64,000 nt of DNA. It comes from a virus. The notes below the pieces were generated by a model. That model was not told where the DNA came from. It searched no databases and was given only the letters and a program-made list of their open reading frames with translations. Below, in pieces: positions 1,529 through 52,459 of this stretch (its first letter is position 1; each line of letters starts with the position of its first letter). Where the stretch lies: the IMG/VR virus record IMGVR_UViG_3300042305_001483, one strand, 5' to 3'. A program made the translations under genes and the position numbers.

Positions 1529-2206
1529 TTATCGAATTTCTACAATAGTTTCATTACTAGGTTTTAATTTTCTAATTTTATCTGTTAAGTGTTGAGGAAT
1601 ATTATAATTATCGTATCCAACTATTTTATTTTCATGGTATACTGCTTTTAATAAACATGGATTAGAGACATCACTATGATCTTGCATGTATCCCACACCC
1701 AATGCAACTAAAGCATATTCGTCTGTATAACCTAAAGCATTGGCTACATTTTTTGAATCAAAACAAATAGAAAATCCTGTATCTAACCCAAGATCTTCAG
1801 CAATTGTCATTACTACGCCTGCACCAATTCCAGATTCTAAAAATGCCTTTTGTATTCTTTTTTCAAATCTATATTTTTGAATTGCCCAATTTTCTTCAGT
1901 TCCGTCAACTTCCTTATATCTAGTTACCCACATAAAAAGATATTGTGCAAGTAGTTGCCCGTTAAAATATTTAACAACACCGGGTCCTAATAATTTATTA
2001 TTTTCATCAGCCCAAGCATAGTTATCGTAAATATTTTTTTTAATATCATAAGAATTTGGACCAAAAATGACACATTTTTGTTCGTATCCGCATTGTTTAC
2101 TAGGAACTCGATATAAGTTTTCAATAATAGTATCAATTTTTTCTTTTTCTACTACTCTTGTATAATCCCACCATCTTGCGGTAATTCTATTTTCTAAGTA
2201 TGTCAT
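1529..2206 (-). CDS. Nitroreductase-family (FMN-dependent) oxidoreductase
   Basis: N-terminal R-x-T-x-R-W FMN-binding motif (ENRITARWW), VPSKQ, and ESGIGAGVVMTIAEDLGLDTGFSICFD...ALGVGY; SD-like AAGGA upstream. Confidence 0.7.
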   Translation of the reverse strand: MTYLENRITARWWDYTRVVEKEKIDTIIENLYRVPSKQCGYEQKCVIFGPNSYDIKKNIYDNYAWADENNKLLGPGVVKYFNGQLLAQYLFMWVTRYKEVDGTEENWAIQKYRFEKRIQKAFLESGIGAGVVMTIAEDLGLDTGFSICFDSKNVANALGYTDEYALVALGVGYMQDHSDVSNPCLLKAVYHENKIVGYDNYNIPQHLTDKIRKLKPSNETIVEIR

Positions 2207-14200: not shown

Positions 14201-15948
14201 ATTGAATCAGAAATTCCACTACCAATTTCGTAACCAAAAATCTTTGTTCCCGAAAAATCATTAGTTATTTCTTGTTTAGTAAAACTAATACCATTTTTAT
14301 CAAACAAATCAAACAACGGAGCATCATTTATAGAGGCATGTTGCTGACCAAATTTCCAGTTTTTATCGTCAGCACTGAAATACCATTCAGTTCCTCCATA
14401 AATATTTCCAAGATTAATTGCTACAGAGTCTAAGTCATTAGGGTTATAAAATTCTACTAATTTTATCACAGTAGAATCTAAAAACGGATCATAATTTATA
14501 GATTTAATTAATTCATCGCCTATTTCTTTAATCCAAGTCGACTGGCTTAGATTGAAATACCATCTAGATTCTGATTGAGAATTTCCATTTTTAATATAAA
14601 CTAAATCTCTATCTTTTGTTTTATAAAATTCAACTAATCTTAATTTTAGAACTGAGTTGTCATTGAATTGTTGAACTCTATAAATAATTCCTCTTTTGGT
14701 TAAATCAGCAGCAGCATTATAAACCACTAATTGATTTTCTAATAAGGGTACACCGTCTATTGAAGAACTAACAACTCCATTTAAAAGTGAAGTTAAATTT
14801 GTAGTTGCTGTATCAATTAAGTTAATTTGAATTCTATTTTTAAATTCAATGCTGTAAATTTTTCCTTTTACATTTTCATTTAAATCATTGTTGAAAATAA
14901 CTTTTTGTCCGCCTTCAACTAACACACCGTCTACATAATAACCGTATGTTCCATCAATTTGATCAAAAGCGTTAGTTGTTATTGTATCTATTAAATCAAC
15001 ATTGCCAATTCCCTTAACACCATAATTGTATAGTTTTAAATTTGCTTTAAATTCTATAATTGGTCTCTTTGCTTTACTTTGAACAGGATAAATTGGTGAT
15101 TTATTATTAATCAGAGCAACAGTCTTAATTACATCTTCATGAAACCATCGATTATATCTAGTCCAAGGATTTAAATCATTGCTAGATTTATTAATTGTGA
15201 TATATTCGGGTGTTCCGGGAAGTTTTCTGTCGCCGTCAAAGGGCAACGAATCAAACGGTGCATTATCAAATTTTTCGTTAAAAGTTTCTGCAAAATTCTT
15301 ATTAATTTCTAATTTGTCAAAATCAACTAAAACAATAGAATCTCCTACCCCTTCAACGATATATTCTCTACCAACGCTTATTTCAAATCCATTATAAGTT
15401 TCATTTTTACTAAATGTTAATTTCATACCATTGGATAATTTGTATCCATAACTAGTAGTATAATTTTGATTTCCTAAAATAGATGGCAAAACATTTGAAG
15501 ACAAATTGTCAATTAGTATTGATTCAGGACCCGACGGTAACCAGTAATAAAAAGAATAGTTGATTAGTTTATCCCAGTCAATTAATGGATCGTATGCACT
15601 AAACTCATTTTTAAAAAGTTTATTATGATCTTGTGTATTTCCACCTTGATTTTTTATTTCATTTAATAAATCATCATATGCAATAGCATCTTTTACATTT
15701 GACAGAGAATCTTTAATAATTAAAGCCGGCTCTAACTGATAATTTCTTCTTAATGGGGTATCTTTTTCTAAATAAAGATCTAAAATTGTATTATAATTAG
15801 GTGTTAATTTTGAACCAATAAATGCATTAATTCTTTCAAGTTCGGGCTCTTGAATAAATTGATCAATGGTGCTAGATAAAAATTTAGAATTTTTTTCTGA
15901 TCTAATATATTCAGGAAGAAGATTTACGGTTTTTCTTTTTTCTGCCAT
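2227..15948 (-). CDS. Giant baseplate wedge protein (gp7-like position), 4573 aa
   Basis: Follows gp6 directly. Contains FG-GAP-like propeller repeats (FGFSVSS...LVGAP), GxGY...P Ig-like repeats, small carbohydrate-binding-like modules (GQLVRYNNSYY; GSIVRYNGVYY) and the conserved EVKPYRTKIR segment. Confidence 0.7.
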   Translation of the reverse strand: MAEKRKTVNLLPEYIRSEKNSKFLSSTIDQFIQEPELERINAFIGSKLTPNYNTILDLYLEKDTPLRRNYQLEPALIIKDSLSNVKDAIAYDDLLNEIKNQGGNTQDHNKLFKNEFSAYDPLIDWDKLINYSFYYWLPSGPESILIDNLSSNVLPSILGNQNYTTSYGYKLSNGMKLTFSKNETYNGFEISVGREYIVEGVGDSIVLVDFDKLEINKNFAETFNEKFDNAPFDSLPFDGDRKLPGTPEYITINKSSNDLNPWTRYNRWFHEDVIKTVALINNKSPIYPVQSKAKRPIIEFKANLKLYNYGVKGIGNVDLIDTITTNAFDQIDGTYGYYVDGVLVEGGQKVIFNNDLNENVKGKIYSIEFKNRIQINLIDTATTNLTSLLNGVVSSSIDGVPLLENQLVVYNAAADLTKRGIIYRVQQFNDNSVLKLRLVEFYKTKDRDLVYIKNGNSQSESRWYFNLSQSTWIKEIGDELIKSINYDPFLDSTVIKLVEFYNPNDLDSVAINLGNIYGGTEWYFSADDKNWKFGQQHASINDAPLFDLFDKNGISFTKQEITNDFSGTKIFGYEIGSGISDSILGFPLKNNNSGIGNYLFKNYFTTDTINVTIDNVTSQKSLALGYLKLGNFLVNVWSSAEGYKIPIVENQTVQTNTTTIELKSLDYPFDTSTQVISYVNNNIVQSTVSFNQTATVTFSQPLKENDAIYFNIFSNNSPNNNGFYEPVLNLTNNPLNGPISSFTLSELSDHVGSMIPKITNFQGQFPGKSNLRDLSNYSKFGTRLIINSTPLVYSKLFLAKKDHNVLDSLRFVGYLYNQYKLNLFDTLGKIESQFSPAEALDIALKYINRNNNIDSLFYRSDMVPYGEDKIVTEFTVGIVVNKIYPIRDNFDNTKLSFNALSVYVNDSLLINGQDYQINSLDSTVEILSNLSTGDKIKIYFYNDTTGSFVPPTPSKLGLYPKFKPAIVEDTSYVQGPVTMILGHDGSLTKAYGDYRDQIILEFEKRIYNNIKVSYNSKLFDMNSVISGAFRINRYTIDDSNNILIKEFINWTNQFNVNFSSNTTFDETNPFTFNYSTTVDTLFSKNVSGSWRGIYQYFYDTDKPHLTPWEMLGFNERPNWWTTTYGLAPYTSSNVLLWTDLSNGYIRGENRYNLNYARSGLLSIIPVDEFGNLKSPDTFLVSESSIFEKQQDWKFGDFSPAEVAWRRSSLWPFALNIVAALLDPCSYTSKLFDVSRTTINELNQILYNDDLYLNPNKLILDNENNQSSGFGNLIIEYGRLKNLNYLNTLKNDLSFLDFNLFHKLGGFTSKNKIQLIMDTVDVSSMSQGAILPPENYDLILNKSNTIQSFRISGIVIQKYNGKFLIKGYDKSNPYFEIFPAIISGNSKSVTVGGIAEPFTEWSSITGNANSSVTFSDTTTANVNTTRYYKSGQLVRYNNSYYRVKVGHNASSNFDPTLFQPISKLPVKGGVTVLVPSLFESRSVRIPYGTMYSTIQEVYNVILGYSRWLESNGFIFDQYDNDLTEILDWKFSAKEFLFWTTQNWSNNNLITISPFAKSLKFGNKNSIVDDINYNSYEYNLLKADGKSFPKENIKLSRDDGICVIETVNTEEGLFFALLNTVQKEHAMIFDNRTLFNDIIYDLDTGYRQRRLKISGFRTANWNGDFFSPGFVYDEVFVGDWKPFVSYLPGSIVRYNGVYYQSNIKIVGSEFFNFNEWSKLREQPSPDLLPNFSYKINQFEDFYSLDIDNFDISQQQLAQHLIGYSERPYLNNIFTNPTTQYKFYQGYIKEKGTKNALDKIVKVGSYARKGSINFTEEWAFRVGHYGGYETFQEVEFKLNEGNSLENPYIVKFSNEVPAEKNNLINYILSEDILIKPTNFEINDVFKISKNEVQDESLFQFPSAGYVRPDDVNVTAYNTNSILDIANNNLLNEKDTIWIGFLDNGNWDVYRYSKQTAKITGVFVSSPGIDITFSCDLFHDLKIGDIVSVVNFNDQVNGIYNVKAVPKLNQFTVDSTLSSIVDDDLVELGSIFKFQSVRFEDFLKVSEFKELYKFENGEKIWVDKVDQKWSVYEKVKNYSTGTYFNSLGNPFGQELGYSIYARDNSQVVLVSSPSWNSGSANSVGRIWVYNQKQNILDKLFEYILNSNNKIYCSTSTNSEFGYTLNYDDGKELIFAGAPKASNIITNNTGTISFSTGTGSSKGFISEGLVKISREKSTVEEEETVAILLAPGSYSNTSAKANYLRFGNTIYVDKVNKSTATTVLIGAPGDGVNNTSTGFVFAYHLTTSTDSNAISLVQHTAGISLTSSVILTQYSKWGEKISGSDNGNFIAVSAPGFTTGSKTGLVEIFNKNLVSKQVIYSPFEENRTFGSDIFVSSSGKFLLISSPDIKNSDGTFGNIAVYSATNLTSTGTYVLNQIIENPSFTTDLKFGVSISLNKNEDILTVGALGRNRSSTYVFDENSNVGKTTFDKGSTEFISPVDDSGTVYVFNNLDGYFIQSEELSDSSILEGSRFGFSVSSLNDFILVGAPWIKNATSLDDSTFFKFDKLDTSINSWKVLRNQPNLVDSQKIKSIKLIDSFKEEIIEYLDIFDPVKGKIIGLAEQELKYKSTFDPAMYSIGTALNSVDSNSSWIDDHIGDLWWDLSTVKYLWYEQGDEIFRKNNWGKIFPGSSIDIYEWVKSDLLPSEWAAQADTNEGLTKGISGQPKYPDNSVMSVKQVFNNVTNSFENVYYFWVKNKVTVPNSRNRRISAIQVANLILDPAANGIRFASILSQNAISFANVQPILVGDRINSNISFDEINNNIPKHTEWLLLEEGNKDSVPTTTLTKKLFDSLLGHDDLGQTVPDLNLSVRNRYGIEIRPRQSMFKDRLLALRNLVEFTNSVLIKNKITGFYDFTNLNKKEEIPDILSREYDFIVDDLEELDQIDISKFSQAELIYSTYNGKVVSVEIINPGFGYSIPPKIEILSSSGEGAELLSEIDGSGRVINVIISNPGKNYLGNLDSSEKIIIRGHTTIVRTNSEYGNRWTKHLFNYEFKNWTRIQTQSYNTPLYWNYVDWVDENYNGYKDYAVVLKDPTELPIASSTVTGDYVKINNVGDGRYIILEKLDSDQIGDFALQYKIVYSQNGTIQISDEIWNFKESNYSYDAATLEETLYDQIPDQELNHILYALKDDIFVGNLKINWNLFFFKAVRYAFTEQKLLDWVFKTSFISVNNQVGELDQKSVYRLDNENYFEDYIREVKPYRTKIRSYTSKYSLTNETSNSVSTDFDLPAYFNTVSNSYELVGLTSSEITEYPWKWWADNYKYYVKNVLVADNGEGYTQNPTVVITPALGDTGSGATAEAYIRNGGVFKVLVSNPGSGYVRPPTVTIVGGGPNVVKPAKVSVELGNDYIRKNILGIKFDRTGVNEEIDSSRITETFECTGNNRFRLTWLAQPNKSKIVPLLDSKIIFSTDYTIEYFTENINNYTSQYCEFVFLNYIPKLGQKFKITYEKNISIYHAVDRINKFYQPTDDMVGKEIPLLMSGAEYKNTVIQGLNFGYSLPWNYGYFDNDSAWSNLVNYYTSAKLVKNINYSGTVLYLDSVEGVSIGQKILLTNTSTSHIRSDAVVSAVNTSTKTVSIANSEYRLKRIISDSLTTQGNIVFFTTEDFNGKITSGSIIEISGVDDGTILGFDGKYIVTNSGTDRFTAVGTGTHAITLLTTSTVKTLGVTAKVTVPAVFNEVNVNSLYNIYSFENLVSNTSTVAYDTNVLFNSVSTVTIYVNDLLYGSYYNVSTTSNNTYNVEIFNLNSNVTNKIKVDLYGYPIVEFWKDNFSFDELDTEISAGSWNGSGNFVGALGINPGDLVIDGSGLISQNIGQSPEEHVKGNTYESVSINVFTQENKSSPIAMSGIVPISANAISSFKLGVPLEESIYITVNFEGKMLDRIYEPPSSGVVDEYFFTTSSQFYVMNDELYIAPQDVNGKVGYNLLTIGGEYVADSVTLLTEYGQSTATLISSAFIDDIRSVYVTIDGREVNSSNYELIPAGPKNKRAAVRVTNIADSKRTIQAWFLKSNFGKFSQIFEEQFSIAAPTSSILVTNLLGTTEPLSAQVFVEVYEPDSTTLVKGRKRLNPPDVNYYKLDGSTTTFNIDNTSRPPGTYTNSNIKVYLNGRLLAPGFDYSINSVTGTVTISSGIASNGAILAIESLVNFDYVINNNTIIFTTPIQPSSSVKVISFADYDGMMLRTERFKGDAGLKFTLGLPVSDSRYVWVALNKQYLIANNDFTILDDFRTVSLNNSISIQSDDEITISYVSTTLRSNLVYGYKIFNDIFNRTTYSRLSNFYGTRLTKELKLTDTEIHVTDSSSLIPPNFHRNIPGVIFVDSERIEFFSKDSNVLSGLRRGTMGTSPAEISDVGTKVFDQSPQQFIPYTDTIKKQYHITSEATGTYVVNTVTNSNGTYTIAISSSSFVINTGTMYQSGGDGIILSTTNGLEQYLNDQISVKFGGRLLRKTASKVHDYNLAYDSTSTSLRTLDPEFTVKFNESTGNFELNIHVEDFTLRTKVEIEQKIGNYWNTSTSLMESESIQSKFIRRHSTEIPDKWYYGNSN

Positions 15949-19986: not shown

Positions 19987-22311
19987 TTAACCTCCAGACC
20001 CGGTTCTTATAGGATTTCCCTGACCATCTGTTACAATTCCACCAGAGCCTGTTCCTAAAAGTTGTCCTTGCAACTGACCTAAAAAGCATTCATAAAAACC
20101 TTTTTTCTTTGCTTTAATATCAGCAGTATTATTTCCAACAGCCTTGCAAGCGGCTTCAAAATAACCAGGATTAGTTTGATCTAATTTAACTCTGTCTAGT
20201 AGATATATAACTGCGGATTCCGCTGCAAGATCTGGTCTGTTTAATAGTTTAGGATTTTTAACTAAATCCCATTTCATTAATTTTCCATATTTTTCATAGT
20301 TGGCTCGACCGGTTATTTGTATATAGCCTCGGCCAATAAATTTTGTTCCGTCACCAGGTTCTTTATTTCCTAATTCTCTACCTTTTGCGCCTTGATACCC
20401 ATATAAAAATTCAGGTAAACTATTATTAGGATTTCCTGCATACTTTTCTGCAAGGCTTCGATCTCCTTTAAATATACTAGGAAACACTTGTAACAATCGA
20501 TTAGCAGTATAATTAAAATTTTCTTCTTTTACTTCCCATAATGTTTCTCCTCCGCAAATCCCCAATAACGAAGCGACTGCATAAGGACTTTTTAACCCAT
20601 ATTTTTCTGCGGCAGTTTTTAAAGCATCTATCCCAAACCCAGATGTTCCTTTGTTAATTGCTCTAGCATATTCAATTGTACAAGTTCCCGGAACAACTAC
20701 TGGAGGGTTTGTTGGTTCAACTGGCGGTGTATTTTGACTTACTTGTCCCGATGCTCGAGCAGCAGCAGAAGCAGGATTTGGAGGGATTCCGTCGGCTGTT
20801 CTATCTGCCAATGTTACATCTGTTTTGGGCGGTTCTACTTTTGGAGGATTAATGTTTTCGTGTTGATCCCACGGTTCGTGTGTTGGAACCCTCTGCATAA
20901 TACTTTTAATATCTGGTGCTTTATAAAATTCTCCGTTTGACCAACCAGAGTTTGCTTTTCTATTAGGTAAAGTGAATAAAGGCAAATCTGGAGGAATTGC
21001 TGCATTTTCTGCACTGCTAGGTGCGGCAGCAGCAGGGCCATTCAAATGAATTACTGACCCGCTTGCTATAATTTGTCCGTTGGCGCCTAAATTTAGTGTT
21101 GCAGCAGTTCCTATGTTGATATTTGATTCTGCTCCTATATTAAAACTTGCGCCCGCTGTTTCTTTAATATCACCGGCGACATTTAAATTAAACGAATTAG
21201 CAACCGAAACTTTAGCCACTCCCCCAATCGTTTTATCATAAGTTTTCGTAACAGAAATTTTGGCATCTTTATCAACATTTAAAAAATAATGGCCGACAAT
21301 ATTTGTTTCCATGTTTCCATCGGCCCTAATGTGTATGTTGCGACCTGCTTCTAAATTTATATCTCTATCTGCTCTAAAATTAAAATCATTTTCAGTATGA
21401 ATACTAACACTATCCTGAGCAAAAATATCAATCTTACCGTTACTAGTTAATTCAATCCATGCTGTACCTTTACTGTTAGCAATGTAGATTAAATCTTGAC
21501 TATTATGCATTAATATTTGATGCCCGGTGCGTGTTCTTAATCTTACTAATTCATTTTGACCATTAACATCCCCGTCATCCATTACAAAAGTTGTACCACC
21601 CAATCTGCTTACAGGTATCCTTGCTTTAGATTGATATCCAATTTCTCCACGTTTTGCACCGGGGCTATCATCAATGGGCCCTGGTGTAGATATTCCGAAT
21701 ACTCCGCTAGGTATTTCTCTTCTTGCAGAACTAGACGTAACACCTCTTGTAGTATCTAGTAATAAACCTTGTTGCAATAGCCTATCAGCAAAAGGATGAA
21801 CAGGTTTGGTAAATTTGTCAACACTTAAAGAAAACTTTCGAGAAGATTTATGAAATTCAGCAACTGGTAACAAATCTGTACCGTATTTTCTTCGTTGCTC
21901 GTCCGTAATAGCAGATTGTTTTGATGCTGCAATTCCAGGAATCATGTGATTTTGAAACATGTCAGAAACACAACCAAACCAATATCCCTGATTAGGATCC
22001 CCGTCAATAAACACAACCATAACTGTTGATCCAATGTCCGGAGGTACTGCCCACCATCCGTAACTTTTTTGAACATCGTTAAAATCAGAACTGTTAGTGC
22101 CTTCGTATTTTATGCTTGTATTTCCTGCAAATGGACTTAAATATCTAACAATATATGTTTCTGCTTGAAGATCAAAATCTGGTGCTACACCTTTAAATAG
22201 TGCAACTTCTAAACTTCCCATATAAGTGGGATCTAGGTGATTTCTAACCTCTGCTAAAAAAGGGCCGGGCGACCCTAATTTTGCCGAGCGTCTTTTTTCA
22301 AAATTTGCCAT
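19987..22311 (-). CDS. gp5: Baseplate hub/spike protein, gp5-like, with C-terminal GH19 (chitinase/endolysin-type) domain
   Basis: OB-fold motif PPDIGSTVMVVFIDGDPNQGYWFG, beta-helix repeats, then EENFNY...GNKEPGDGTKFIGRGYIQITGRANY (GH19). Confidence 0.8.
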   Translation of the reverse strand: MANFEKRRSAKLGSPGPFLAEVRNHLDPTYMGSLEVALFKGVAPDFDLQAETYIVRYLSPFAGNTSIKYEGTNSSDFNDVQKSYGWWAVPPDIGSTVMVVFIDGDPNQGYWFGCVSDMFQNHMIPGIAASKQSAITDEQRRKYGTDLLPVAEFHKSSRKFSLSVDKFTKPVHPFADRLLQQGLLLDTTRGVTSSSARREIPSGVFGISTPGPIDDSPGAKRGEIGYQSKARIPVSRLGGTTFVMDDGDVNGQNELVRLRTRTGHQILMHNSQDLIYIANSKGTAWIELTSNGKIDIFAQDSVSIHTENDFNFRADRDINLEAGRNIHIRADGNMETNIVGHYFLNVDKDAKISVTKTYDKTIGGVAKVSVANSFNLNVAGDIKETAGASFNIGAESNINIGTAATLNLGANGQIIASGSVIHLNGPAAAAPSSAENAAIPPDLPLFTLPNRKANSGWSNGEFYKAPDIKSIMQRVPTHEPWDQHENINPPKVEPPKTDVTLADRTADGIPPNPASAAARASGQVSQNTPPVEPTNPPVVVPGTCTIEYARAINKGTSGFGIDALKTAAEKYGLKSPYAVASLLGICGGETLWEVKEENFNYTANRLLQVFPSIFKGDRSLAEKYAGNPNNSLPEFLYGYQGAKGRELGNKEPGDGTKFIGRGYIQITGRANYEKYGKLMKWDLVKNPKLLNRPDLAAESAVIYLLDRVKLDQTNPGYFEAACKAVGNNTADIKAKKKGFYECFLGQLQGQLLGTGSGGIVTDGQGNPIRTGSGG

Positions 22312-28300: not shown

Positions 28301-29314
28301 ATGAACCTTTTTAAAAAGGTAGCCTGTTTTACAGATCTTCATGTTGGATTAAAAAGTAATTCACCGATACATCTTAAAGATTGCGAAGAGTTTATCGATT
28401 GGTTTATTTTAGAAGCCAAAAAAAATAATTGTGAGACTGGAATATTTTTAGGGGATTGGAGTCATAATCGAAATAGTTTAAATCTTGTAACACTAGATAC
28501 AAGTATTAAGTTATTAGAAAAACTCGGATCTTCTTTTGAACAATTTTTTTGGTTTCCGGGCAATCACGACTTATTTTACAAAGACAAAAGAGATGTCCAC
28601 AGTTCTGCCTTTGGAAGACATATTCCAGGCGTCACTGTAGTCGAAAATGTATGCACCATAGGTGATGTGACTTTAGTACCGTGGTTGGTAGGCGACGAAT
28701 GGAAAGATATCAGTAAAATTAAAAGTCGATATATGTTCGGTCATTTTGAACTACCGTTGTTTTACATGAACGCCATGGTTCAAATGCCAGACACCGGTGA
28801 ATTACAAGCAGAACATTTTAAAAATCAAGACTACGTTTTTAGTGGTCATTTTCATAAAAGACAAAGTAGAGGAAAAGTGCATTATATTGGTAATGCATTT
28901 CCTCATAATTTTGCAGACTCTTGGGACGACGAGCGCGGTATGATGATACTAGAATGGGGAGGTGAGCCACAATATATAAACTGGCTCGATTGTCCCAAAT
29001 TTAGACATGTTAAACTTTCAGATTTAATTGATAAGAAGGATGAAATTTTAAAATCTAAAATGTACTTAAAAGTAAATTTAGATATCGATATTAGTTTTGA
29101 AGAAGCAAATTTTATTAAAGAAACTTTCACTAAAGAACACGATATTAGAGAAATAAGTTTAATTCAAGATAAAATAAATCTTGAAGGGACTATTGATGAC
29201 AACCCAGATCAAAAATTTGAAAGTGTTGATCAAATTGTTTCAGAACAACTAGTTAATATTGATAGCAAAGATTTTGACAAAAACGTTTTATTAAAAATTT
29301 ACAACAGCATATGA
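28301..29314 (+). CDS. gp47: Recombination endonuclease subunit (Mre11/SbcD-like)
   Basis: Metallophosphoesterase motifs DLH, GD, GNHD, GHF, SGHFH. Confidence 0.92.
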   Translation: MNLFKKVACFTDLHVGLKSNSPIHLKDCEEFIDWFILEAKKNNCETGIFLGDWSHNRNSLNLVTLDTSIKLLEKLGSSFEQFFWFPGNHDLFYKDKRDVHSSAFGRHIPGVTVVENVCTIGDVTLVPWLVGDEWKDISKIKSRYMFGHFELPLFYMNAMVQMPDTGELQAEHFKNQDYVFSGHFHKRQSRGKVHYIGNAFPHNFADSWDDERGMMILEWGGEPQYINWLDCPKFRHVKLSDLIDKKDEILKSKMYLKVNLDIDISFEEANFIKETFTKEHDIREISLIQDKINLEGTIDDNPDQKFESVDQIVSEQLVNIDSKDFDKNVLLKIYNSI

Positions 29315-30141
29315 AAATAGTAGACTGTTTTATGTTTTTTAATGAATTTGAATTATTAAAAGGAAGATTACAATATCTAAAAGATCATGTCGACTTTTTT
29401 GTTCTTGTAGAATCGAACATTACACAAAGTGGTCATGAAAAACCTTTGCACTTTGCAGAAAATTTATTTAGGTATAGAGAATTTTTAGATAAAATTCTCT
29501 ATTTTCCCTTTATTGTAGATCGAGAAAAGTTTAATTATAATAAATTACCTTCCTGGGAAAGAGATTATGACACAGGGCCGTGGCAACAAGAAAATGCTCA
29601 AAGAAACTATATTAGCAAAGCATTAAATTTATTCGATGACCACGATATTATTATGATTAGTGACCTTGACGAAATTCCTCATAAAGAATGTATTAACATT
29701 GCCAAAGAATATTTTTCTAAAGGTTGGGATAGATTAGCAGTTGAGCAAGATCATTATGCATATAATTTTAGACAAAAACAGGTTGTCCCAATAAGAGGTA
29801 CTACAATCAGCACTAACAAAATTGTTAAAGAACTAAGCCCGCAACAACTAAGAAATGAAAAATACGGTTATGGTTTAATTTCTAGAGGCGGATGGCACCT
29901 AACTTATTGGGGTGATGTAAAAACTATTCAATATAAAATCGAAACATTTGCTCACCAAGAATTTAATCAAGACAAATTTAAAACACCCGAACACATCAAA
30001 GAAAAAATTTTAAAAGGTGAAGATATGTTCAATCGAAACAATCCTTATGTAAAGGTTGACCCTGAAAAAGAAATTCCCAAAGATGTTCTTGAAATTTTTG
30101 GTGAATTTGAAAGAAAAAACTTAGAATCAATCAATGTTTAA
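29311..30141 (+). CDS. Glycosyltransferase family 17 (MGAT3/GnT-III-like)
   Basis: DCFMFFNEFELL..RL, FVLVESN.T.SG..KPL.F, E..QRN, ISDLDEIP (DxD), GGWHLTY, KIETFAHQE. Confidence 0.8.
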   Translation: MKIVDCFMFFNEFELLKGRLQYLKDHVDFFVLVESNITQSGHEKPLHFAENLFRYREFLDKILYFPFIVDREKFNYNKLPSWERDYDTGPWQQENAQRNYISKALNLFDDHDIIMISDLDEIPHKECINIAKEYFSKGWDRLAVEQDHYAYNFRQKQVVPIRGTTISTNKIVKELSPQQLRNEKYGYGLISRGGWHLTYWGDVKTIQYKIETFAHQEFNQDKFKTPEHIKEKILKGEDMFNRNNPYVKVDPEKEIPKDVLEIFGEFERKNLESINV

Positions 30142-31912
30142 ACTAAAAACTATTACTGTTAAAAATTTCATGAGCGTGGGTAATCAAACTCAGGCAGTAA
30201 ATTTTAATAAAGATCATTTAACTCTTGTGCTTGGATCAAACTTAGACCTTGGCGGAGACGATACTGGTTCAAGAAACGGTACCGGTAAAACTACAATTAT
30301 TAATGCATTAAGTTACGCATTGTACGGCCAAGCATTAACTAATATTAAAAAAGAAAATCTTATTAATAAAATCAACGGTAAAAACATGTTAGTTACTGTT
30401 GACTTTGAAAAAAACAACGCACACTATCGAATTGAGCGTGGCAGAAAATCTAACATTTTAAAATTGTTTGTTAATAACAAAGAATTAAAAGCCAAAGATG
30501 AAGACGAAAGTCAAGGAGATAGTAGAGAAACTCAAAAAACAATTGAAGAAATGCTCGAAATGAGTCATTCAATGTTTAAACATCTTGTTGCCCTTAATAC
30601 ATACACTGAACCGTTCCTTGCAATGAGAGCGGCAGATCAACGAGAAATTATTGAACAACTTCTTGGAATTACTATTCTTTCTACAAAAGCAGAAAATTTA
30701 AAAATTGAAATCAAAAATACCAAAGATAAAATTTTAGCAGAAAATTTAAAAATTGAAACTATTAAAACATCAAACGAAAACATACAAAAAAGTATTGATA
30801 GTTTGCAATTAAAAAGTAATCTATGGGATACTAAACATCAACAAGAATTGGAAAGTTTAGGTCGAGCCATTGTTAATCTCGAATCAGTAGATATTATTCA
30901 AGAATTAGAAAATCATAAAAATTTAAAACTTTGGGAAGAACTTGATACAAAAATTCGAGGTCTTAACAAACAAAAAGCAACCCTAGAAAGCGCAGTTATA
31001 CAGGCTCAAAAAACTAGAGACAAATATGTTCGAGAAGTAGAGTCTCTATCTAGTAAAACTTGCCCGGCGTGTGAACAAGAGTTGCACGATCATAAACACC
31101 AAGAAATGACTGCAACTGCTATGAATAATTTAGCCGATGCACAAACTTACTTTGATAAGGTAGTAAATGATTTAGAAAAAATATCAGAAGAAATTAGCGA
31201 AAAAAATGTTTTTCCTAAACCTAACACATTTTACGAAACAGAAGCAGAAGCACTGGGACACAAAAATAATCTCGATAATTTAGAAAAATCTTTGTTAGAA
31301 AAAGCAGACGAAAAAAATCCTTATCAAGAACAAATAGATGATTTAAAGAAAACTGCAATTCAAACAGTCGATTGGACTGCCATTAACGATCTAACAAAAT
31401 TAAAAGATCATCAAGAGTTTTTATTAAAATTATTAACTAATAAAGATAGTTTTATCAGAAAGAAAATTATAGATCAAAATTTAAATTACCTAAACAAAAG
31501 ATTAACCTATTACATTGACAAGTTAGGGCTTCCTCACAAGGTTGTGTTTCAAAACGATTTAACTGTAGAAATTACTCAATTAGGTCAAGAATTAGACTTT
31601 GATAATTTAAGCAGGGGAGAACGAAATAGACTGATCCTTTCAATGAGTTTTGCTTTTAGAGATGTTTGGGAAGGACTGTACCAAAGTATCAATTTGTTGT
31701 TTATTGATGAATTGGTTGATGCAGGAATGGACTTTGCCGGCGTTGAAGCCAGTTTAGCGGTATTGAAAAAAATGGCCAGGGATAGAAATAAGAATATATA
31801 CTTAATATCTCATAAAGATGAATTGATTGGACGAGTTAACAACGTATTAAAAGTAACAAAAGAAAACGGATTTACAAGTTATTCAAATGATATTGATTAT
31901 GTCGAACATTGA
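30134..31912 (+). CDS. gp46: Recombination ATPase subunit (Rad50/SbcC-like)
   Basis: Walker A NGTGKTT, zinc hook CPAC, signature LSRGE, Walker B LLFIDE, ISH motif, coiled coils. Confidence 0.93.
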   Translation: MFKLKTITVKNFMSVGNQTQAVNFNKDHLTLVLGSNLDLGGDDTGSRNGTGKTTIINALSYALYGQALTNIKKENLINKINGKNMLVTVDFEKNNAHYRIERGRKSNILKLFVNNKELKAKDEDESQGDSRETQKTIEEMLEMSHSMFKHLVALNTYTEPFLAMRAADQREIIEQLLGITILSTKAENLKIEIKNTKDKILAENLKIETIKTSNENIQKSIDSLQLKSNLWDTKHQQELESLGRAIVNLESVDIIQELENHKNLKLWEELDTKIRGLNKQKATLESAVIQAQKTRDKYVREVESLSSKTCPACEQELHDHKHQEMTATAMNNLADAQTYFDKVVNDLEKISEEISEKNVFPKPNTFYETEAEALGHKNNLDNLEKSLLEKADEKNPYQEQIDDLKKTAIQTVDWTAINDLTKLKDHQEFLLKLLTNKDSFIRKKIIDQNLNYLNKRLTYYIDKLGLPHKVVFQNDLTVEITQLGQELDFDNLSRGERNRLILSMSFAFRDVWEGLYQSINLLFIDELVDAGMDFAGVEASLAVLKKMARDRNKNIYLISHKDELIGRVNNVLKVTKENGFTSYSNDIDYVEH

Positions 31913-32189
31913 ATTAGAAAAATATAAAAATTTATACTCTCAACTAATTTCAGAGTTTGCTACTTTACACAATTCTCACCAACTCTTTATAAGAACCAAA
32001 GGTAGAGATCCTGCTATGGTTTCTAGAAGGAGTTTAAGATCTATTGCAAAAATTGCTAATGAAATGAAAAGACAAGGTCAAAAAGTATCACAAGAATTTA
32101 TGGCAAACAAAAGATTAGAAAAAATTCGTCTTAGAGAAGAAAAAGCAACGAAAAAGACGAAAAAACATGACTTGGCTATATCAAAATAA
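31899..32189 (+). CDS. Small basic helical hypothetical protein (possibly nucleic-acid binding)
   Basis: K/R-rich; overlaps both neighbours; start at 31899 or 31887. Confidence 0.5.
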   Translation: MSNIELEKYKNLYSQLISEFATLHNSHQLFIRTKGRDPAMVSRRSLRSIAKIANEMKRQGQKVSQEFMANKRLEKIRLREEKATKKTKKHDLAISK

Positions 32190-32592
32190 TACCATAACAG
32201 AATTACCCGAAGATTGTGTAGGCTTTGTTTATATCATTACTAACAAAATAACAAATAGAAAATACATTGGCAAAAAATTGGCAAAATTTAGTAAAACGAC
32301 CTACAAGACTGTAAAGTTAAAGAACGGCACAAAAAAGAAAAAGAAAATTCGAAGCAAAATAGACAGCGACTGGCAAGATTATTATGGCTCAAACGAACAA
32401 TTGAATAAAGATGTAGTACAACTAGGCACAGAAAATTTTATAAGAGAAATACTTTATTTTTGTAAATCTAAAGCAGAATGCAGTTACATTGAGGCAAGAG
32501 AACAATTTTCAAGGCGAGTTTTAGAAACAAACGAATATTATAACGGGCATATACAAGTCCGTGTCCATGGCTCACACATATTAAAATCTTAA
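32167..32592 (+). CDS. Compact GIY-YIG (Seg-like) endonuclease
   Basis: GFVYIITN...KYIGKK, YYGS, FIREIL, E in YIEAREQ, YYN; 141 aa with a basic KKKKKIR insertion and no appended DNA-binding domain. Confidence 0.8.
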   Translation: MTWLYQNNTITELPEDCVGFVYIITNKITNRKYIGKKLAKFSKTTYKTVKLKNGTKKKKKIRSKIDSDWQDYYGSNEQLNKDVVQLGTENFIREILYFCKSKAECSYIEAREQFSRRVLETNEYYNGHIQVRVHGSHILKS

Positions 32593-46822: not shown

Positions 46823-49800
46823 ATGTCACTTACTAATGTATCAAATTATCCCGGAAATTATGTAATTAAGGCCCTAGACGGTTATGTATTAGTTTTTGTG
46901 CCGAATAGTAACATTATTTTACAATCTCCCAAAACTAGGGTGACGGGAGATCTGTTTGTTGATCAAAATGCCACAGTTGAAAGAGATTTAACTGTTAATA
47001 ATAACTCTATATTCGGTAACACTGATGCTGATACAATTAACCCTATTGCACAGTTTATTAATAACTTAATTCCTCAAGAAGAAGAAACTTACGATATTGG
47101 CTCCCAAGAAAATTATTGGAATAGGTTATATGTAGGAAGTTTTTTGACTTTAGGAACAGGTACTACTTACAGAAACACAATTACTAATACAGAAAACGTT
47201 TGGAATCCGTACTTACCTTCACCACAAGGACGACCATACGATCCAAATGATGTTTACGGTACAAAAGAACAACGAGAACAAGGTGCATTATATATTGCTG
47301 GCGGTGTTGGTATTGAAAAAGATTTAAACGTCGGCGGATACATTTATGGTAGAATCGAAACTGCAAACACAACAACTTTCGTTGATTATACTGCAACAAA
47401 TATAGATCAAGAACTAAAATTAATTTTCATTAACGAAGATCCTTCAAATCAAAGTGCAGTTTTTATTGATGAAATAGGAACTGAAGACGGATTAAATTAT
47501 AATCCTTTCTTAGGAAGAATTACCACAGATAGAATAATCGTTGCTGAAACAGATCAAGCGACTAGTACTTTAACAGGTGCTTTGCAAGTTGTTGGCGGAG
47601 CTGGAATACAAAAAAATGTATTTGTCGGAGAAAATATTAATGTTGCTCAAGATGCTTATGTTGGCGGAAATGTAACAGCGACAAATGTATTACCTCAAGT
47701 AGATTCTACTGGTACAATTGGTCAAGAAAATAGGCAGTGGACAGACGGATTCATTGAAAATTTATACACTAAAATTATTAGATCCACGACAGGTAGTATA
47801 CAAATTATACCAAAAGATCCTTTAACTGAGATTATTGGTGATATTAGAGTTCGTGGTACTAATCCAGTTGGTACTGCACCAGTAGTTACAAATACATTGT
47901 ATGTCACTGTTGACGGAAATGATACCAATGACGGTCGTGCGCAAGATTCTAGCCGAGCATGTCGTACAATTGGAGGTGCATTAAACAGTCCGTATTATCA
48001 ACCAGGTACACAGATTTTAGTCAGCGCCGGGCGTTATCTTGAAGATAATCCATTAAGATTAAAACCTTATACAAGTATTCGTGGTTCTGACATTAGAACT
48101 ACATTTATTGAACCAATTAATAAAACACAAGATTTATTCCATGTAGATAGTGGATGTTATCTAAACTACATGACATTTTTAAATGGTCGAAGTGGATTAT
48201 TAGAAGGCCCATATGCTCCTGGATTTAATAGAGGAGCCTATGCGACAGCGTTTCCTCCATTAGAAGGTGATAAACGAATTGATTTATTCCATTCTCCTTA
48301 TGTACAAAACTGTACAAATCAGAGCGGACCTTGGTTGAAAGATGGAACATTATATCAACCAAATCAAACAGTTCAAATTCCTGAAGCAGTTGGCACTGGT
48401 ACTTGGGTTAAGAACACCACAACTTTATTAGTTACAGTTACTACAGGAACTATTACTGCTGGAATGAGTATAAATTCAGGACAGCAAAATCCTGGATTCT
48501 TCAATGCTAGAACTTTAATGCTAGCAAATAAACCTTTCTTGCAAGAACAAGTTATTAATTGGATCTCTGATCAAATTACCACCAATATAGGAAATACATC
48601 AAGTATTTGGTGGAATACTGCAACGAATACATCATTTACTTATAGCCAAGAAAAGTGCAGAAGAGATGTTGGAATATTAGTTGAAAATGTTGCGTATGAT
48701 GCAGCGTTCGGTGGAAACCAAAAATCAGTTGAAAGTGGCTTGGCATATTACAATGGAGTTGTAAGTTTAATCGCAGGTCAAGAAGCACAAACTACTGCTG
48801 CAATTAATTATCTTGGCACTTTAACACAACAAATAATTGTTAATTCTACTGCAACAGTTATAGGCAGTAACAATTATTCTCAAGTCATTAACTGGGTTTT
48901 AACTGGTGGAGAAATAGCAAGTCAGTCAATAGATAATTTGTTTACTATTATAACAGATATTATTAATGACGGGCCTGATGCAAAACCAGATTTATATCAA
49001 AGTACTGGACCTGATTCTGCATTTGTTAGCGCAGAAATATTAATGCAGGCTAACAGAAAGTTCATGCAAGAAGAAACTATCAATTATATTAATAATAACT
49101 TAATTGGTGCAAGTTTCCCTTATAGTGAAATAAAATGCCGCAGAGACACTGGATTAATTATTGATTCTATAGCGTTTGATATGCTGTATCCAACTGCAAA
49201 TTGGAGTCAATCAACATTTGCTGGATTGCAATATTGGAAGCAACAAGATTTAACACCAACGATTGTAGATGAAATCAATACAACTACGCTGGCTATTTCT
49301 TACTTGAAAGAATTAGCAGGAAAAATTATTTTAAATATTACACCTGCAGATGATCTAATTCCTAGATATCAAACACTTGTTCCTCAGGTAACAACTACAT
49401 ATCAAGCAGCAACACTTAATGAAGTATCTATTATTAATAGTAGATTTGATGAAATTTTAGAAATTTTAAATGGTAAAACTACAGGTTGGACTGATATAAT
49501 AGAATCAAATGGTAAACCTAGTAATTTCTTATCAGTACAAAATGCTACAAATAATTTAAGATCAAACATTGATTACATGGCCAATGAAGTTACTGCATAC
49601 GTAGATTATGTAACTTCAGGAACAGGCTTTGTCTATAACACAGCAACTTGCCAGCGAGACGTTGGATATATTATTGATGCAGTTGCTTTTGATTTATTAC
49701 ACGGTGGTAATAGACAAAGTATTCAAAATGGACTTTATTATTATGGATTTAGTGTAACAACATCATCTGTTGAAGCACAGCAATCACAAACTATAGAAGC

Positions 49801-52459
49801 ATTTGAATATCTATCTCTGTTAAGTAATCAAGTAATTCAAAATATTCCTGTAACACCAAAACAAAACAAAGTAAAGCAGGTGTTTACTCAAGTAACTGCT
49901 ACAGTTTCTGAATCTGCAATATTAAATTCTGCAATTAATGTAATTAACGGAATTATAACTGGAACATCGGCAGTAGCATTACCTCCTCAATCAATTGCAT
50001 TTACTGCTAGTACAGTGACAAATGTATTAGAAGCATTTGACAATCTTTATGCTAATAAAGAATTTTTAGTTGAAGAAGTTATTGCTTATATTGATCAAAC
50101 ATATAATCCAACTGCATTCAATTATGATGAAGCAAAATGCTACAGAGATATCGGGTTGTTAATTGATGCAGTAAGCCAAGATATATTATTAGGCGGAAAT
50201 CAAAAGAGCGTTGAAGCCGGTCTTGCATATTGGAGTGCTGGTTATAATTATGTTTCGGGACAAGTTACTACAACTACATTGGCTATTAATTATGTGTCTT
50301 TCTTAAGCACTATGACCGCAGCCAACGAAGTAATTACACCTCAAACTAATACAGATGCTACTCAAGTAATTAATTTGTTCTTTGATTATGGATACGAATA
50401 CGGTCCTCAAGAAGCAATTAAACGAAATTTTAATATCATAACAACAATTATCGAAAAAGGACCACAATATGCTCCTCCTGTGTATGCCGGTGGGGGCTTA
50501 TTTGCACTTACCGGCTTAAATGGATCGGATGTTATAATCAGTCCACAGGTTACTGCGGTGTATACTGCATCTACTGGTACTTATTTGATTGGATTGAATA
50601 CATCGACTGTAGGTTTTGGTACTAATGCTACTTTATATTTTGGTGATACTACAATATTCCCGTATACTGATGCAGAAGTTGAAAAATTAAGTTTTGAACT
50701 TACAGGAAACACAAGCACATGGAATCAAAGAAAAGTTGATACAATTGGATCCATGGGTGGAAGTTTAGTAGACGGCGCTGTAATTAGTGATCGCAGTCCA
50801 ATTCAATCTTTTGTTTATGACGCCTTTACACAGGTAAATCAAGGTGGTAGAGGTATTCATATTACCAATGACGGATATGCTCAGTTAGTTTCTGTGTTTA
50901 CAATTTTCTGTTCCGTAGGAGTTCAAACAGACAACGGAGGCATTGCAAGTATTGTCAACAGTAACGCAAACTTCGGAGACATTTGTTTGCTATCTAAAGG
51001 ATTTGGTAAACGTAAATTTAGCGGAACTATTTACAACCCTCCAGGAAAAGCATTTGATACAAACACAGGCGCAAGGAATCCAGATTTTGATCAGTTTTTC
51101 CCTGACGGATATTGGCCAAAAGCAGCAAAAGTAGAAGTGTTTATTCCTGATTTAGCAGATAGGCCTCATATATCGTTAATTATGGAAGTAGAGCCTCCAG
51201 AAGGACATCTCAACGAACAATTGTTGCCTGGATTTTTAAATGCTGCTCCAAATAAATCTACATTAACAACAGGAACCATTGTTATTACAGATATAGATAC
51301 AGAAGGAATTGCTATAGGAAATAGCCTCTATATCAGAGATCAAAACAATAATCGATTCTATGCAGATACCGGTACTGTGGTCACAGATGTAGGTTATAGA
51401 AGTGTTACATTGAACAAAGCATTAATTAGTGGCGGGGGAGACCCAAACAATCCTAATTTCTTTGATTTGTATTTCTGCGGTAACGCATACTATACAGTAT
51501 TAAGCAGCGATGTAGCAGTTAATCCTAAAACAAACGGTATAAATTTACTTTCGACTGCTTCTACAGGATTGGTATACGATCAAGTTGAACCACATGCAGA
51601 TGCTATTAGATTTTTAAACAGCCTAACATTAAAGGTAATTGATAATCAACCAATAACACCATTGAACACATCTACAACATATACTCCAGATCCTATGGTT
51701 AAAGGTGGTAGTCAGGCTGCAAACTTTATTAATCTACGTTTTGGTGAAATACTATCTATTTTAACTGCTACTAACGTGACATCAGCAGAAGCAATTATAC
51801 CTGAACGATTGAGAAATAAAAAAGGAACTCAACCTCTTGGTGCAGGTAATGCTGCTACCTTAATTTCAAGGAATATAGAATTTTTAGCAGATGAGGTATC
51901 GGCATATACAACTAATACATATGCAGGAACGATATTTAACGGTATTTCTCAAAGTACATATGATATGATTGTAGAAAAATGTCAACGAGACGTTAAATTA
52001 ATTCTAAGAAGACTAGTCTACGATCTAGAAACCGGAGGTAGATATAATTCTGTAATGTCGGGGTTAAGTTATTGGTCAAGAAATGGTACTCATCATTTAG
52101 TTGATTTAGGAGAAAACGTAAGAAGAACAGATTTATTCCCAGACGGTTCTACTATAAATTTCTATCAACGTAGTTACATGAGTGCTAGTGGATATGTGTT
52201 TGAATATGTTGGTGCAGGTGTAACTTATGGAGCATTACCACAAAGAGGCCGAGCAGATCCAGTTCAAGGAAAAGAAACAGTTCAACTAAGTGGCGGTAAA
52301 GTATTCTTTACTAGCACAGATCAAAACGGAGATTTTAGAATTGGTCCGGGATTAGTAATTAGTCAAGCAACTGGTGTATTAAGTGGTAGAACATTTACTA
52401 AATCTCTATTTGCAAATATGACACCGTTTATATTAGCAATCGAAGGCGGCGGAACATAA
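46823..52459 (+). CDS. Large virion structural protein with beta-helix (pectin-lyase-like) scaffold and five CxRD helical repeats
   Basis: LYVTVDGNDTNDG...ACRTIGGAL...G.Y.E.NP, SPYVQNCT, DAFTQVNQGG, FEYVGAG, STDQNGDFRIG; ATAAATA at 46798-46804 and GAGGA SD. Confidence 0.7.
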   Translation: MSLTNVSNYPGNYVIKALDGYVLVFVPNSNIILQSPKTRVTGDLFVDQNATVERDLTVNNNSIFGNTDADTINPIAQFINNLIPQEEETYDIGSQENYWNRLYVGSFLTLGTGTTYRNTITNTENVWNPYLPSPQGRPYDPNDVYGTKEQREQGALYIAGGVGIEKDLNVGGYIYGRIETANTTTFVDYTATNIDQELKLIFINEDPSNQSAVFIDEIGTEDGLNYNPFLGRITTDRIIVAETDQATSTLTGALQVVGGAGIQKNVFVGENINVAQDAYVGGNVTATNVLPQVDSTGTIGQENRQWTDGFIENLYTKIIRSTTGSIQIIPKDPLTEIIGDIRVRGTNPVGTAPVVTNTLYVTVDGNDTNDGRAQDSSRACRTIGGALNSPYYQPGTQILVSAGRYLEDNPLRLKPYTSIRGSDIRTTFIEPINKTQDLFHVDSGCYLNYMTFLNGRSGLLEGPYAPGFNRGAYATAFPPLEGDKRIDLFHSPYVQNCTNQSGPWLKDGTLYQPNQTVQIPEAVGTGTWVKNTTTLLVTVTTGTITAGMSINSGQQNPGFFNARTLMLANKPFLQEQVINWISDQITTNIGNTSSIWWNTATNTSFTYSQEKCRRDVGILVENVAYDAAFGGNQKSVESGLAYYNGVVSLIAGQEAQTTAAINYLGTLTQQIIVNSTATVIGSNNYSQVINWVLTGGEIASQSIDNLFTIITDIINDGPDAKPDLYQSTGPDSAFVSAEILMQANRKFMQEETINYINNNLIGASFPYSEIKCRRDTGLIIDSIAFDMLYPTANWSQSTFAGLQYWKQQDLTPTIVDEINTTTLAISYLKELAGKIILNITPADDLIPRYQTLVPQVTTTYQAATLNEVSIINSRFDEILEILNGKTTGWTDIIESNGKPSNFLSVQNATNNLRSNIDYMANEVTAYVDYVTSGTGFVYNTATCQRDVGYIIDAVAFDLLHGGNRQSIQNGLYYYGFSVTTSSVEAQQSQTIEAFEYLSLLSNQVIQNIPVTPKQNKVKQVFTQVTATVSESAILNSAINVINGIITGTSAVALPPQSIAFTASTVTNVLEAFDNLYANKEFLVEEVIAYIDQTYNPTAFNYDEAKCYRDIGLLIDAVSQDILLGGNQKSVEAGLAYWSAGYNYVSGQVTTTTLAINYVSFLSTMTAANEVITPQTNTDATQVINLFFDYGYEYGPQEAIKRNFNIITTIIEKGPQYAPPVYAGGGLFALTGLNGSDVIISPQVTAVYTASTGTYLIGLNTSTVGFGTNATLYFGDTTIFPYTDAEVEKLSFELTGNTSTWNQRKVDTIGSMGGSLVDGAVISDRSPIQSFVYDAFTQVNQGGRGIHITNDGYAQLVSVFTIFCSVGVQTDNGGIASIVNSNANFGDICLLSKGFGKRKFSGTIYNPPGKAFDTNTGARNPDFDQFFPDGYWPKAAKVEVFIPDLADRPHISLIMEVEPPEGHLNEQLLPGFLNAAPNKSTLTTGTIVITDIDTEGIAIGNSLYIRDQNNNRFYADTGTVVTDVGYRSVTLNKALISGGGDPNNPNFFDLYFCGNAYYTVLSSDVAVNPKTNGINLLSTASTGLVYDQVEPHADAIRFLNSLTLKVIDNQPITPLNTSTTYTPDPMVKGGSQAANFINLRFGEILSILTATNVTSAEAIIPERLRNKKGTQPLGAGNAATLISRNIEFLADEVSAYTTNTYAGTIFNGISQSTYDMIVEKCQRDVKLILRRLVYDLETGGRYNSVMSGLSYWSRNGTHHLVDLGENVRRTDLFPDGSTINFYQRSYMSASGYVFEYVGAGVTYGALPQRGRADPVQGKETVQLSGGKVFFTSTDQNGDFRIGPGLVISQATGVLSGRTFTKSLFANMTPFILAIEGGGT

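Follow-up and report, generated by a model that had tools for sequence, protein, structure and literature searches.

Tandem phycobiliprotein-like domains with a conserved C-x-R-D motif in a tail-fibre-like protein of a jumbo T4-like phage

Introduction

Do some phage fibres contain domains of the phycobiliprotein family, and could such domains hold a bilin? The question is raised by the virus record IMGVR_UViG_3300042305_001483, from which a stretch of 64,000 nucleotides (the window) was analysed. An open reading frame (ORF) at 46823..52459 on the + strand runs uninterrupted for 1878 amino acids (aa), and its product, P0001, is a tail-fibre-like protein with five C-x-R-D motifs. CXRD is the covalent bilin site of phycobiliproteins and of the bilin biosynthesis-associated globins (BBAGs) BBAG-1/3, and BBAGs attach bilins without lyases (PMC10151467; the papers cited here were available in part, and statements about them refer to the available text). 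An earlier reading of the window (the original prediction) had taken the motifs for parts of phycobiliprotein-like repeats and had suggested a chromophore-carrying virion appendage or a repurposed globin-like structural module. The gene was found to belong to a large fibre family with an intact bilin-attachment motif, many members of which carry a bare PF00502 label in databases. No description of phycobiliprotein-like domains in phage structural proteins was found in the full-text literature, with most subscription journals outside the coverage of the search.

Results

Five C-x-R-D motifs in an array of repeats

The motifs were located at Cys612, Cys772, Cys943, Cys1106 and Cys1720, with spacings of 160, 171, 163 and 614 aa, respectively. 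Their residues, flanking sequences and first three spacings were all as originally predicted. The composition of the protein, which holds 11 Cys in total, gives an expectation of 0.02 C-x-R-D motifs versus the 5 observed. No further copy of the extended motif turned up when all six frames of the window were scanned. The array comprises four complete units of about 162 aa and a truncated fifth, which, as in many homologues, passes straight into the C-terminal domain. The five domains, with their independent E-values (i-Evalues) against the repeat profile, are as follows.

48401..48886, + strand: phycobiliprotein-like domain 1, aa 527-688, Cys612 (i-Evalue 1.7e-45; motif)
48899..49390, + strand: phycobiliprotein-like domain 2, aa 693-856, Cys772 (2.3e-52; motif)
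49403..49882, + strand: phycobiliprotein-like domain 3, aa 861-1020, Cys943 (3.3e-56; the copy closest to PF00502)
49895..50368, + strand: phycobiliprotein-like domain 4, aa 1025-1182, Cys1106 (1e-52; motif)
51704..52138, + strand: truncated fifth domain, aa 1628-1772, Cys1720 (3.8e-37; profile positions 4-135 only)

Sequence relationship to phycobiliproteins

When the whole protein was compared with Pfam, PF00502 (Phycobilisome) was the sole family to exceed its curated cut-off of 22.2 bits, with a score of 27.2 bits (E 4.5e-6). The match covered residues 921-1006 on profile positions 51-137. A phmmer search against all PDB chains gave eight matches at E<=1, all eight of them C-phycocyanin alpha, and the best was 1jbo_A (E 0.0074). 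In this alignment, Cys943-Gln-Arg-Asp falls on Cys84-Ala-Arg-Asp of C-phycocyanin alpha, and the phycocyanin consensus originally given for the region around Cys84 agrees with it.

The relationship was also recovered with an alignment of 47 non-redundant 162-aa units (from Cys-83 to Cys+78) taken from the window and related IMG/VR loci. Searched against PDB, the profile of this alignment matched phycocyanin or phycoerythrocyanin chains in 34 of 35 cases at E<=1, with a best E-value of 0.001; the remaining match was an unrelated Golgi protein. The register was exact, with profile positions 81-104 on chain positions 81-104. Among the single units, 11 of the 47 matched PF00502 at E<=0.1. Fold alone would be insufficient for a claim of kinship, and homology was accepted because the sequence matches are reciprocal and in register. 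The repeats are very probably homologous to the phycobiliprotein and bilin-binding globin family. The predicted phycobiliprotein-like fold is thus supported by sequence in both directions and by structure prediction, and the support for a chromophore-carrying appendage is circumstantial: the conservation of the triad, the genes for bilin synthesis in relatives and the association with cpeT among cyanomyoviruses.

Structure prediction

AlphaFold2 (AF2), given the alignment of 47 units, predicted an all-helical domain with a predicted local distance difference test score (pLDDT) of 88.0 and a predicted template modelling score (pTM) of 0.84. Helices were placed at 44-55, 57-71, 81-101, 105-115 and 125-146. 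In an exhaustive structural search with VIA, the top match was phycoerythrin beta, with Z 9.1 and a root-mean-square deviation (rmsd) of 3.0 over 123 aa. It was followed by far-red allophycocyanin, a photocobilin globin, an allophycocyanin-type chain and the bilin domain of ApcE, with Z of 8.9, 8.8, 8.4 and 8.3, respectively. Globin-coupled sensors and colicin pore domains were ranked below these bilin proteins. Structural alignments to phycobiliproteins start near model residue 34, and cyanophage copies of the domain match profile positions ~41-150 only.

A model of two repeats (pLDDT 75, pTM 0.69) left the VIA order unchanged, with Z of 9.6, 9.3 and 9.0. It was most confident across the unit junction, where blocks 141-170 reached a pLDDT of 85-91, which would suit a rigid rod better than a flexible string of separate beads. 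The equivalent of helix H was unresolved in both the single-repeat and the two-repeat models. A predicted homotrimer of one repeat scored 0.00, which counts neither for nor against assembly.

Conservation of the cysteine and its neighbours

Of the 7994 candidates scored in a homologue search with residues 560-1280, 945 proteins reached E<=0.001. The homologues reach 3287 aa and lie on contigs of up to 358 kb, and 67 of the 120 that were listed carry a precomputed PF00502 label. Conservation was measured in 1458 domains from 121 proteins, namely the 120 listed homologues and the window protein. Each protein has 5 to 17 profile matches to the domain, with a median of 13.

Cys84 was kept in 97.9% of the aligned copies (1379/1408), Arg86 in 98.9% and Asp87 in 99.5%. 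Asp98, Tyr114 and Tyr79 were kept in 100%, 99.9% and 90.5%, respectively, and Gln161 in 98.7% of the copies where it is aligned (882/894). In the single-unit model, Gln161 sits in an ordered, non-helical tail of the unit with a pLDDT above 90. A simpler count of the motif gave Cys in 1326 of 1341 matches. The identity between units is overall about 20-40%, and the site must be under very strong constraint because its conservation is near-absolute at such low identity. Divergent copies in cultured cyanophages retain Cys and Asp87 even without Arg, the forms being CxRD, CxDD and CKTD. In these alignments, the candidate site combines the bilin triad of the family with two invariants of its own.

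Giant ORFs of two cultured cyanophages carry a C-x-D-D variant of the domain, with Cys and Asp87 kept and Arg86 lost. In each phage this is a second giant ORF, of 3792 aa in S-PM2 (region 164836-170910) and of 3682 aa in P-HM2 (region 81464-84820).

Position of the array within the fibre protein

The genes for the T4-type portal, prohead protease and major capsid protein lie shortly upstream of the fibre gene. The protein matches tail-fibre and virion structural families of PHROGs, for example phrog_5342 at 5.6e-69, and homologues are annotated as virion structural proteins. Outside the repeats, the following features were recognised.

46823..52459, + strand: whole gene, tail-fibre-like virion protein (open frame, PHROGs families, structural gene block)
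46823..47866, + strand: N-terminal region, aa 1-348, fibrous and without family (sub-threshold Bactofilin and Hexapep matches)
47867..48325, + strand: host domain part 1, aa 349-501, ending in SPYVQNCT, possibly beta-helix-like (homologue alignment; DUF1565-like language-model features)
50804..51058, + strand: host domain part 2, aa 1328-1412, with DAFTQVNQGG (homologue alignment; PHROGs tail-fibre stretches 1329-1397)
52145..52441, + strand: conserved C-terminal fibre domain, aa 1775-1873 (54% identity to a cyanophage C-terminus; C-termini of phrog_17885 and phrog_3442)

The array had been predicted to lie between two parts of one domain, marked by SPYVQNCT (residue 491) and DAFTQVNQGG (residue 1333). 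Alignment to SynMITS9220M01_093, a cyanophage homologue of 1167 aa, agrees with this prediction. Its residues 695-828 match residues 349-501 of the window protein with 37% identity, and its residues 845-929 match residues 1328-1412 with 45% identity. It also shares the C-terminal 100 residues (54% identity). Because the two pieces stand just 16 residues apart in SynMITS9220M01_093, the array is equivalent to about 826 residues inserted within a conserved domain of the fibre. Judged from this alignment, the array is inserted into a loop of that domain.

The flanking domain had also been read as a beta-helix. The split domain is confirmed, and the beta-helix is a lead, since DUF1565 clusters appeared in 7 of the 30 matches to the language-model features of the host domain. 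Pfam and PDB sequence searches of the flanks (aa 1-329, 330-545, 1183-1640 and 1770-1878) found no beta-helix family. They returned sub-threshold Bactofilin and Hexapep matches and one globin match at E 0.36.

Occurrence among phages

The four repeats matched 343 of 50,697 cultured-phage records, which are named Synechococcus (277), Cyanophage (55), Prochlorococcus (10) and 'Marine' (1). The whole protein matched 303 cultured-phage records with the same kinds of names, and megablast of the gene against cultured phages gave no match. The carriers include S-PM2 p091 (3338 aa, five C-x-R-D at 131-aa spacing) and S-SM1_102 (6180 aa), both annotated as tail-fibre and virion structural proteins. These two proteins (T4-GC 830 and T4-GC 969, respectively) and the 4458-aa and 3682-aa ORFs of P-HM2 have the same domain family as the window protein, and the cyanomyovirus giant proteins share with it the C-terminal fibre domain and the host domain. 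However, their repeats are only 23-28% identical to those of the window, the units are shorter (131-aa spacing in S-PM2), and some read C-x-D-D.

The virus backbone also differs. The capsid protein of the window shares 67-72% identity with its counterparts in jumbo phages (Phosso, a Vibrio phage, GAP32 and relatives). For the baseplate wedge protein, the identity is about 33% with the proteins of Atu_ph07, Phosso, SCTP-2 and PA5oct. By these similarities, capsid and baseplate resembling Phosso, Atu_ph07, GAP32 and PA5oct, the backbone is that of a jumbo T4-like phage, unlike that of the cyanomyoviruses.

Stand-alone relatives of the domain were also sought. There were 61 matches of 89-284 aa, and all 12 that were inspected were C-terminal fragments of fibre genes. 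The remaining short matches are probably fragments too, because most lie on contigs of 1-3 kb. BBAGs are stand-alone, single-domain globins, whereas the domains described here are tandem repeats inside an 1878-aa protein. No relative was found in prokaryote genomes with the four-repeat protein and a six-sequence alignment, a search whose very narrow peptide patterns say nothing on absence or on the host.

Bilin genes in relatives of the window phage

Co-occurrence of the domain with cpeT and with genes for heme oxygenase (HO) and ferredoxin-dependent bilin reductase (FDBR) was assessed in 16 cultured genomes and 30 fragmentary viral records (capsid kin or FDBR carriers), with kinship uncorrected. 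Capsid relatives were represented by the 12 longest of 80 contigs in IMG/VR. G006 (328 kb, capsid 88% identical) was the sole relative at least 90% complete among the 12. Its genes for HO (180 aa) and FDBR (224 aa) are neighbours, and it carries 19 copies of the domain. The best NCBIfam match of its FDBR is PcyA, at 81.6 bits, which is far under the equivalog cut-off. The same adjacent pair occurs in G007 (61% complete), together with 9 domains. Neither enzyme was seen in the other ten capsid relatives (16-60% complete), of which seven carry the domain.

FDBR carriers were collected with an alignment of four viral FDBRs, which found 306 relatives in IMG/VR. The domain was present in 11 of the 18 longest other contigs (70-280 kb). 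With G006 and G007 included, it was found in 9 of the 10 FDBR-bearing records that are at least 46% complete, the exception being G018 (50%), and in 4 of the 10 that are at most 36% complete. G027 (208 kb, 100% complete) carries the domain and represents a second lineage, because its capsid is only 38% identical. In the other FDBR-bearing carriers with a capsid in view, the capsid is 81-88% identical, and these phages are kin of the window phage.

In G006, the HO-FDBR pair (162639-166202) has HSP20 and ClpS genes upstream and CsgF- and CsgG-like genes (curli secretion channel) downstream. Genes for curli export are odd in a phage.

cpeT and light-dependent adsorption in cyanophages

The 16 cyanomyovirus genomes compared by Sullivan et al. 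2010 were examined for the domain and for CpeT (PF06206). The domain was found in 13 and is missing from P-SSM2, S-SM2 and S-SSM7. CpeT was found in 11 and is absent from these same three, and also from P-SSM7 and S-ShM2, which have sub-threshold CpeT candidates. CpeT thus occurred in 11 of 13 domain carriers versus 0 of 3 non-carriers (Fisher p = 0.018, with kinship ignored).

Adsorption in light and darkness has been compared for several cyanophages. In the dark, P-HM1 and P-HM2 fail to adsorb, P-SSP7 adsorbs, and P-SSM2 adsorbs as well, though less than in the light (PMC6628666). The adsorption of S-PM2 is light-dependent and independent of photosynthesis (PMC6628666; also PMC2984593), and light-sensitive host receptors or tail fibres have been suspected in light-dependent adsorption (PMC6628666). 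The numbers of domain matches were 4, 4 and 9 in P-HM1, P-HM2 and S-PM2, respectively, and 0 in both P-SSM2 and P-SSP7. The presence of the domain fits the adsorption phenotypes, as an anecdote of five phages of which two are near-identical. The available text of an experimental-evolution paper on S-PM2 (PMC9910659) does not mention the carrier gene.

Other genes of the window

Beside the baseplate genes lies a 4573-aa ORF (2227-15948, - strand) with a weak CBM_5_12 match (E 9.3e-7), FG-GAP matches and no C-x-R-D repeat; its product is probably a further fibre or adhesin of giant size. The gene at 1529-2206 (- strand), beside the giant structural genes, encodes a protein of the nitroreductase family (PF00881, E 3.8e-9). 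The baseplate hub protein (19987-22311, - strand) has gp5-like OB and trimerisation parts fused to a C-terminal lysozyme/class I chitinase-like domain. A block of Mre11 (metallophosphatase)/SbcC-like nuclease genes (28301-31912) contains a family-17 glycosyltransferase gene (29311-30141, + strand, E 3.1e-26). Just past this block lies a segE-type GIY-YIG homing endonuclease gene (32167-32592, + strand, E 1.3e-30).

Discussion

The sequence relationship and the near-invariant site make bilin-binding fibre domains a candidate acceptor for phage-made bilins, and we rate the chances of this reading as about even. The proposed ligand is a linear tetrapyrrole (bilin), which in each domain would occupy the cleft next to helix E, with a thioether bond to the Cys and with Asp and Arg keeping it in place; phycobiliproteins and the BBAG-1/3 globins bind their bilins in this way. 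The bilin would be supplied by a phage heme oxygenase and a PcyA/PcyX-like reductase in the relatives of the window phage, or by the host in cyanophages, and its attachment would be autocatalytic or aided by a T-type lyase. The outcome would be a rigid, pigmented fibre shaft of variable length, in which the pigment might serve light-gated adsorption or photoprotection, or might only stabilise the fold. A lone conserved thiol on an extracellular protein would call for a chemical role. Circumstantially, the domain occurs in phages with a bilin supply, namely cyanophages and phages with HO and FDBR, and some carriers that are 66-72% complete have no visible bilin genes.

Comparison with known bilin proteins shows both likenesses and differences. 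Like C-phycocyanin alpha, phycoerythrin and allophycocyanin, the repeat is an all-helical, globin-like domain of about 160 aa with Cys-x-Arg-Asp on helix E. Unlike phycobiliproteins, which are free alpha and beta subunits, the fibre domains are tandem copies in one giant virion protein. In addition, the N-terminal ~40 residues are not conserved in the cyanophage copies, and Asp98 and Tyr114 are extra invariants. In ApcE, too, a phycobiliprotein-type domain forms part of a long chain of several domains (VIA Z 8.3 and 9.0, rmsd 2.6 and 2.2), and its bilin attachment is autocatalytic. However, ApcE contains a single copy of the domain, with linker repeats after it, and it belongs to the phycobilisome core and not to a virion. 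BBAGs, of which BBAG-1/3 carry CXRD, are non-photosynthetic phycobiliprotein paralogues in genomes that contain HO and FDBR, as the genomes of some phage relatives do (PMC10151467). Unlike the fibre domains, which are repeated, embedded and apart from the HO-FDBR cassette, BBAGs are single-domain cellular proteins clustered with the enzymes. The available text of that paper (Rockwell, Martin and Lagarias 2023) does not mention phage fibre domains.

Several results weigh against bilin binding or the kinship on which it is founded. Single repeats scored below the PF00502 cut-off, with repeat 3 at E 0.009 (16.4-16.6 bits) and repeat 5 at E 0.15, and repeats 1, 2 and 4 alone gave no match. The VIA Z of 9-10 is under the safe level of the tool for helical bundles. 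Foldseek against PDB returned nothing at E<=0.001, with phycobiliproteins heading its list at E 0.17-0.7. Asp98 and Tyr114 have no phycobiliprotein counterpart in the alignment to C-phycocyanin alpha, and the two residues might join Arg86 and Asp87 in a buried network of polar groups that takes the place of a bilin. No HO, FDBR or lyase gene was present among the 34 ORFs scanned in the window; of the bilin genes originally proposed as a check, HO and a PcyA-like FDBR were found in the relatives G006 and G007. Five fibre-bearing viral records (23-72% complete) had no HO, FDBR, CpeT or psbA. The domain occurs in 9 of the 12 capsid relatives irrespective of FDBR, and the co-occurrence may be a shared lineage trait because the domain is present in capsid relatives with or without FDBR. 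Co-occurrence of the domain and HO-FDBR is real, and it lies largely within one lineage.

The cyanomyoviruses add further points of this kind. P-SSM2 has an FDBR and lacks the domain by either profile, and S-PM2 and S-SM1 have the domain and no FDBR; FDBR genes do not track the domain in cyanomyoviruses. A cyanobacterial host could itself supply the bilin. If the three non-carriers form one clade, the association with cpeT is a single event. We know of no report of coloured cyanophage particles, although no search was aimed at this. T-type lyases are described as acting on beta-Cys153 and not on Cys84 (PMC10452541).

A serious rival reading, though we hold it more tentatively, is that the repeat may be a ligand-free helical spacer derived from phycobiliproteins, which sets the length of the fibre and whose conserved residues form a folding network. 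The variable copy number of 5-17 per protein is as expected for length setting, the units abut without linkers, and the confidence of the two-repeat model peaks at their junction. Asp98 and Tyr114, invariant yet specific to the phage domain, would also suit a folding network, and so would the domain in jumbo-phage records that are 66-72% complete and lack HO, FDBR, CpeT and psbA. However, a buried small residue is usually exchangeable with Ala, Ser or Gly, whereas this Cys was kept in all but 29 of 1408 copies (1379/1408) despite an identity of about 25-30%, and one lone free thiol per domain would be unusual on an extracellular protein. A spacer would also leave unexplained the confinement to cyanophages among cultured phages and the association with HO-FDBR and cpeT.

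Another chemistry at Cys, Asp, Asp, Tyr and Gln161 is improbable. These residues might bind a metal, link two chains through a disulfide once the cell has lysed, or harden the fibre by an autocatalytic internal cross-link. Stabilisation by metal sites or covalent cross-links is known from phage fibres and capsids, and five to seven polar or reactive positions, Gln161 included, are 98-100% invariant. However, the family and structural searches pointed to neither a metal site nor a cross-link domain, the triad is exactly that of the bilin site in the related proteins, and no intradomain disulfide is possible because each domain has one Cys. Chance or convergence, in which an unrelated helical repeat happens to carry C-x-R-D, is very improbable: single repeats under the Pfam cut-off, poor Foldseek E-values and a VIA Z of ~9, common for helical models, would suit it, but the sequence matches are reciprocal and specific, the whole protein passes the PF00502 cut-off, 34 of 35 PDB matches are phycobiliproteins in register, bilin-binding globins are the top structural matches of two models and the unit length equals that of phycobiliproteins.

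Within the bilin-binding reading, a narrower possibility is that bilins bound covalently to the fibre, synthesised by the phage enzymes in non-photosynthetic hosts or drawn from the host by cyanophages, form a virus-borne photoreceptor that gates adsorption. We regard it as rather unlikely; if true, it would explain the bilin and cpeT genes of phages and a light-dependent adsorption that is independent of photosynthesis.

A bilin acceptor on the virion would bear on several findings. In the large freshwater phage CB_2, HemO and PcyA yield phycocyanobilin for a purpose called 'still enigmatic'; non-photosynthetic hosts were proposed for phages of this type, and a phytochrome or BBAG was guessed as the bilin user (PMC11480375). 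The relatives of the window phage have the same arrangement of adjacent HO and PcyA-like FDBR as these large freshwater phages (PMC11480375; bioRxiv 10.1101/2020.02.13.942896). The cassette was not found in the 64-kb window, and the available text of the papers on HemO-PcyA/PcyX phages names no phage-encoded bilin acceptor. The cyanophage genes pcyA, pebS and ho1 have been called 'a mystery' and cpeT 'unresolved' (PMC3037559).

With as many as 17 candidate bilin sites in each chain, the fibre protein offers a specific, phage-encoded candidate acceptor on the virion. It bears on the phycocyanobilin made by phages of non-photosynthetic freshwater bacteria, on the bilin genes of cyanophages and on light-dependent adsorption. 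If no pigment binds, a light-harvesting fold of the host would have been recruited as a building block of fibres. If pigment binds, chromophore-bearing virus particles would be a new virion property and a new branch in the history of bilin-binding globins.

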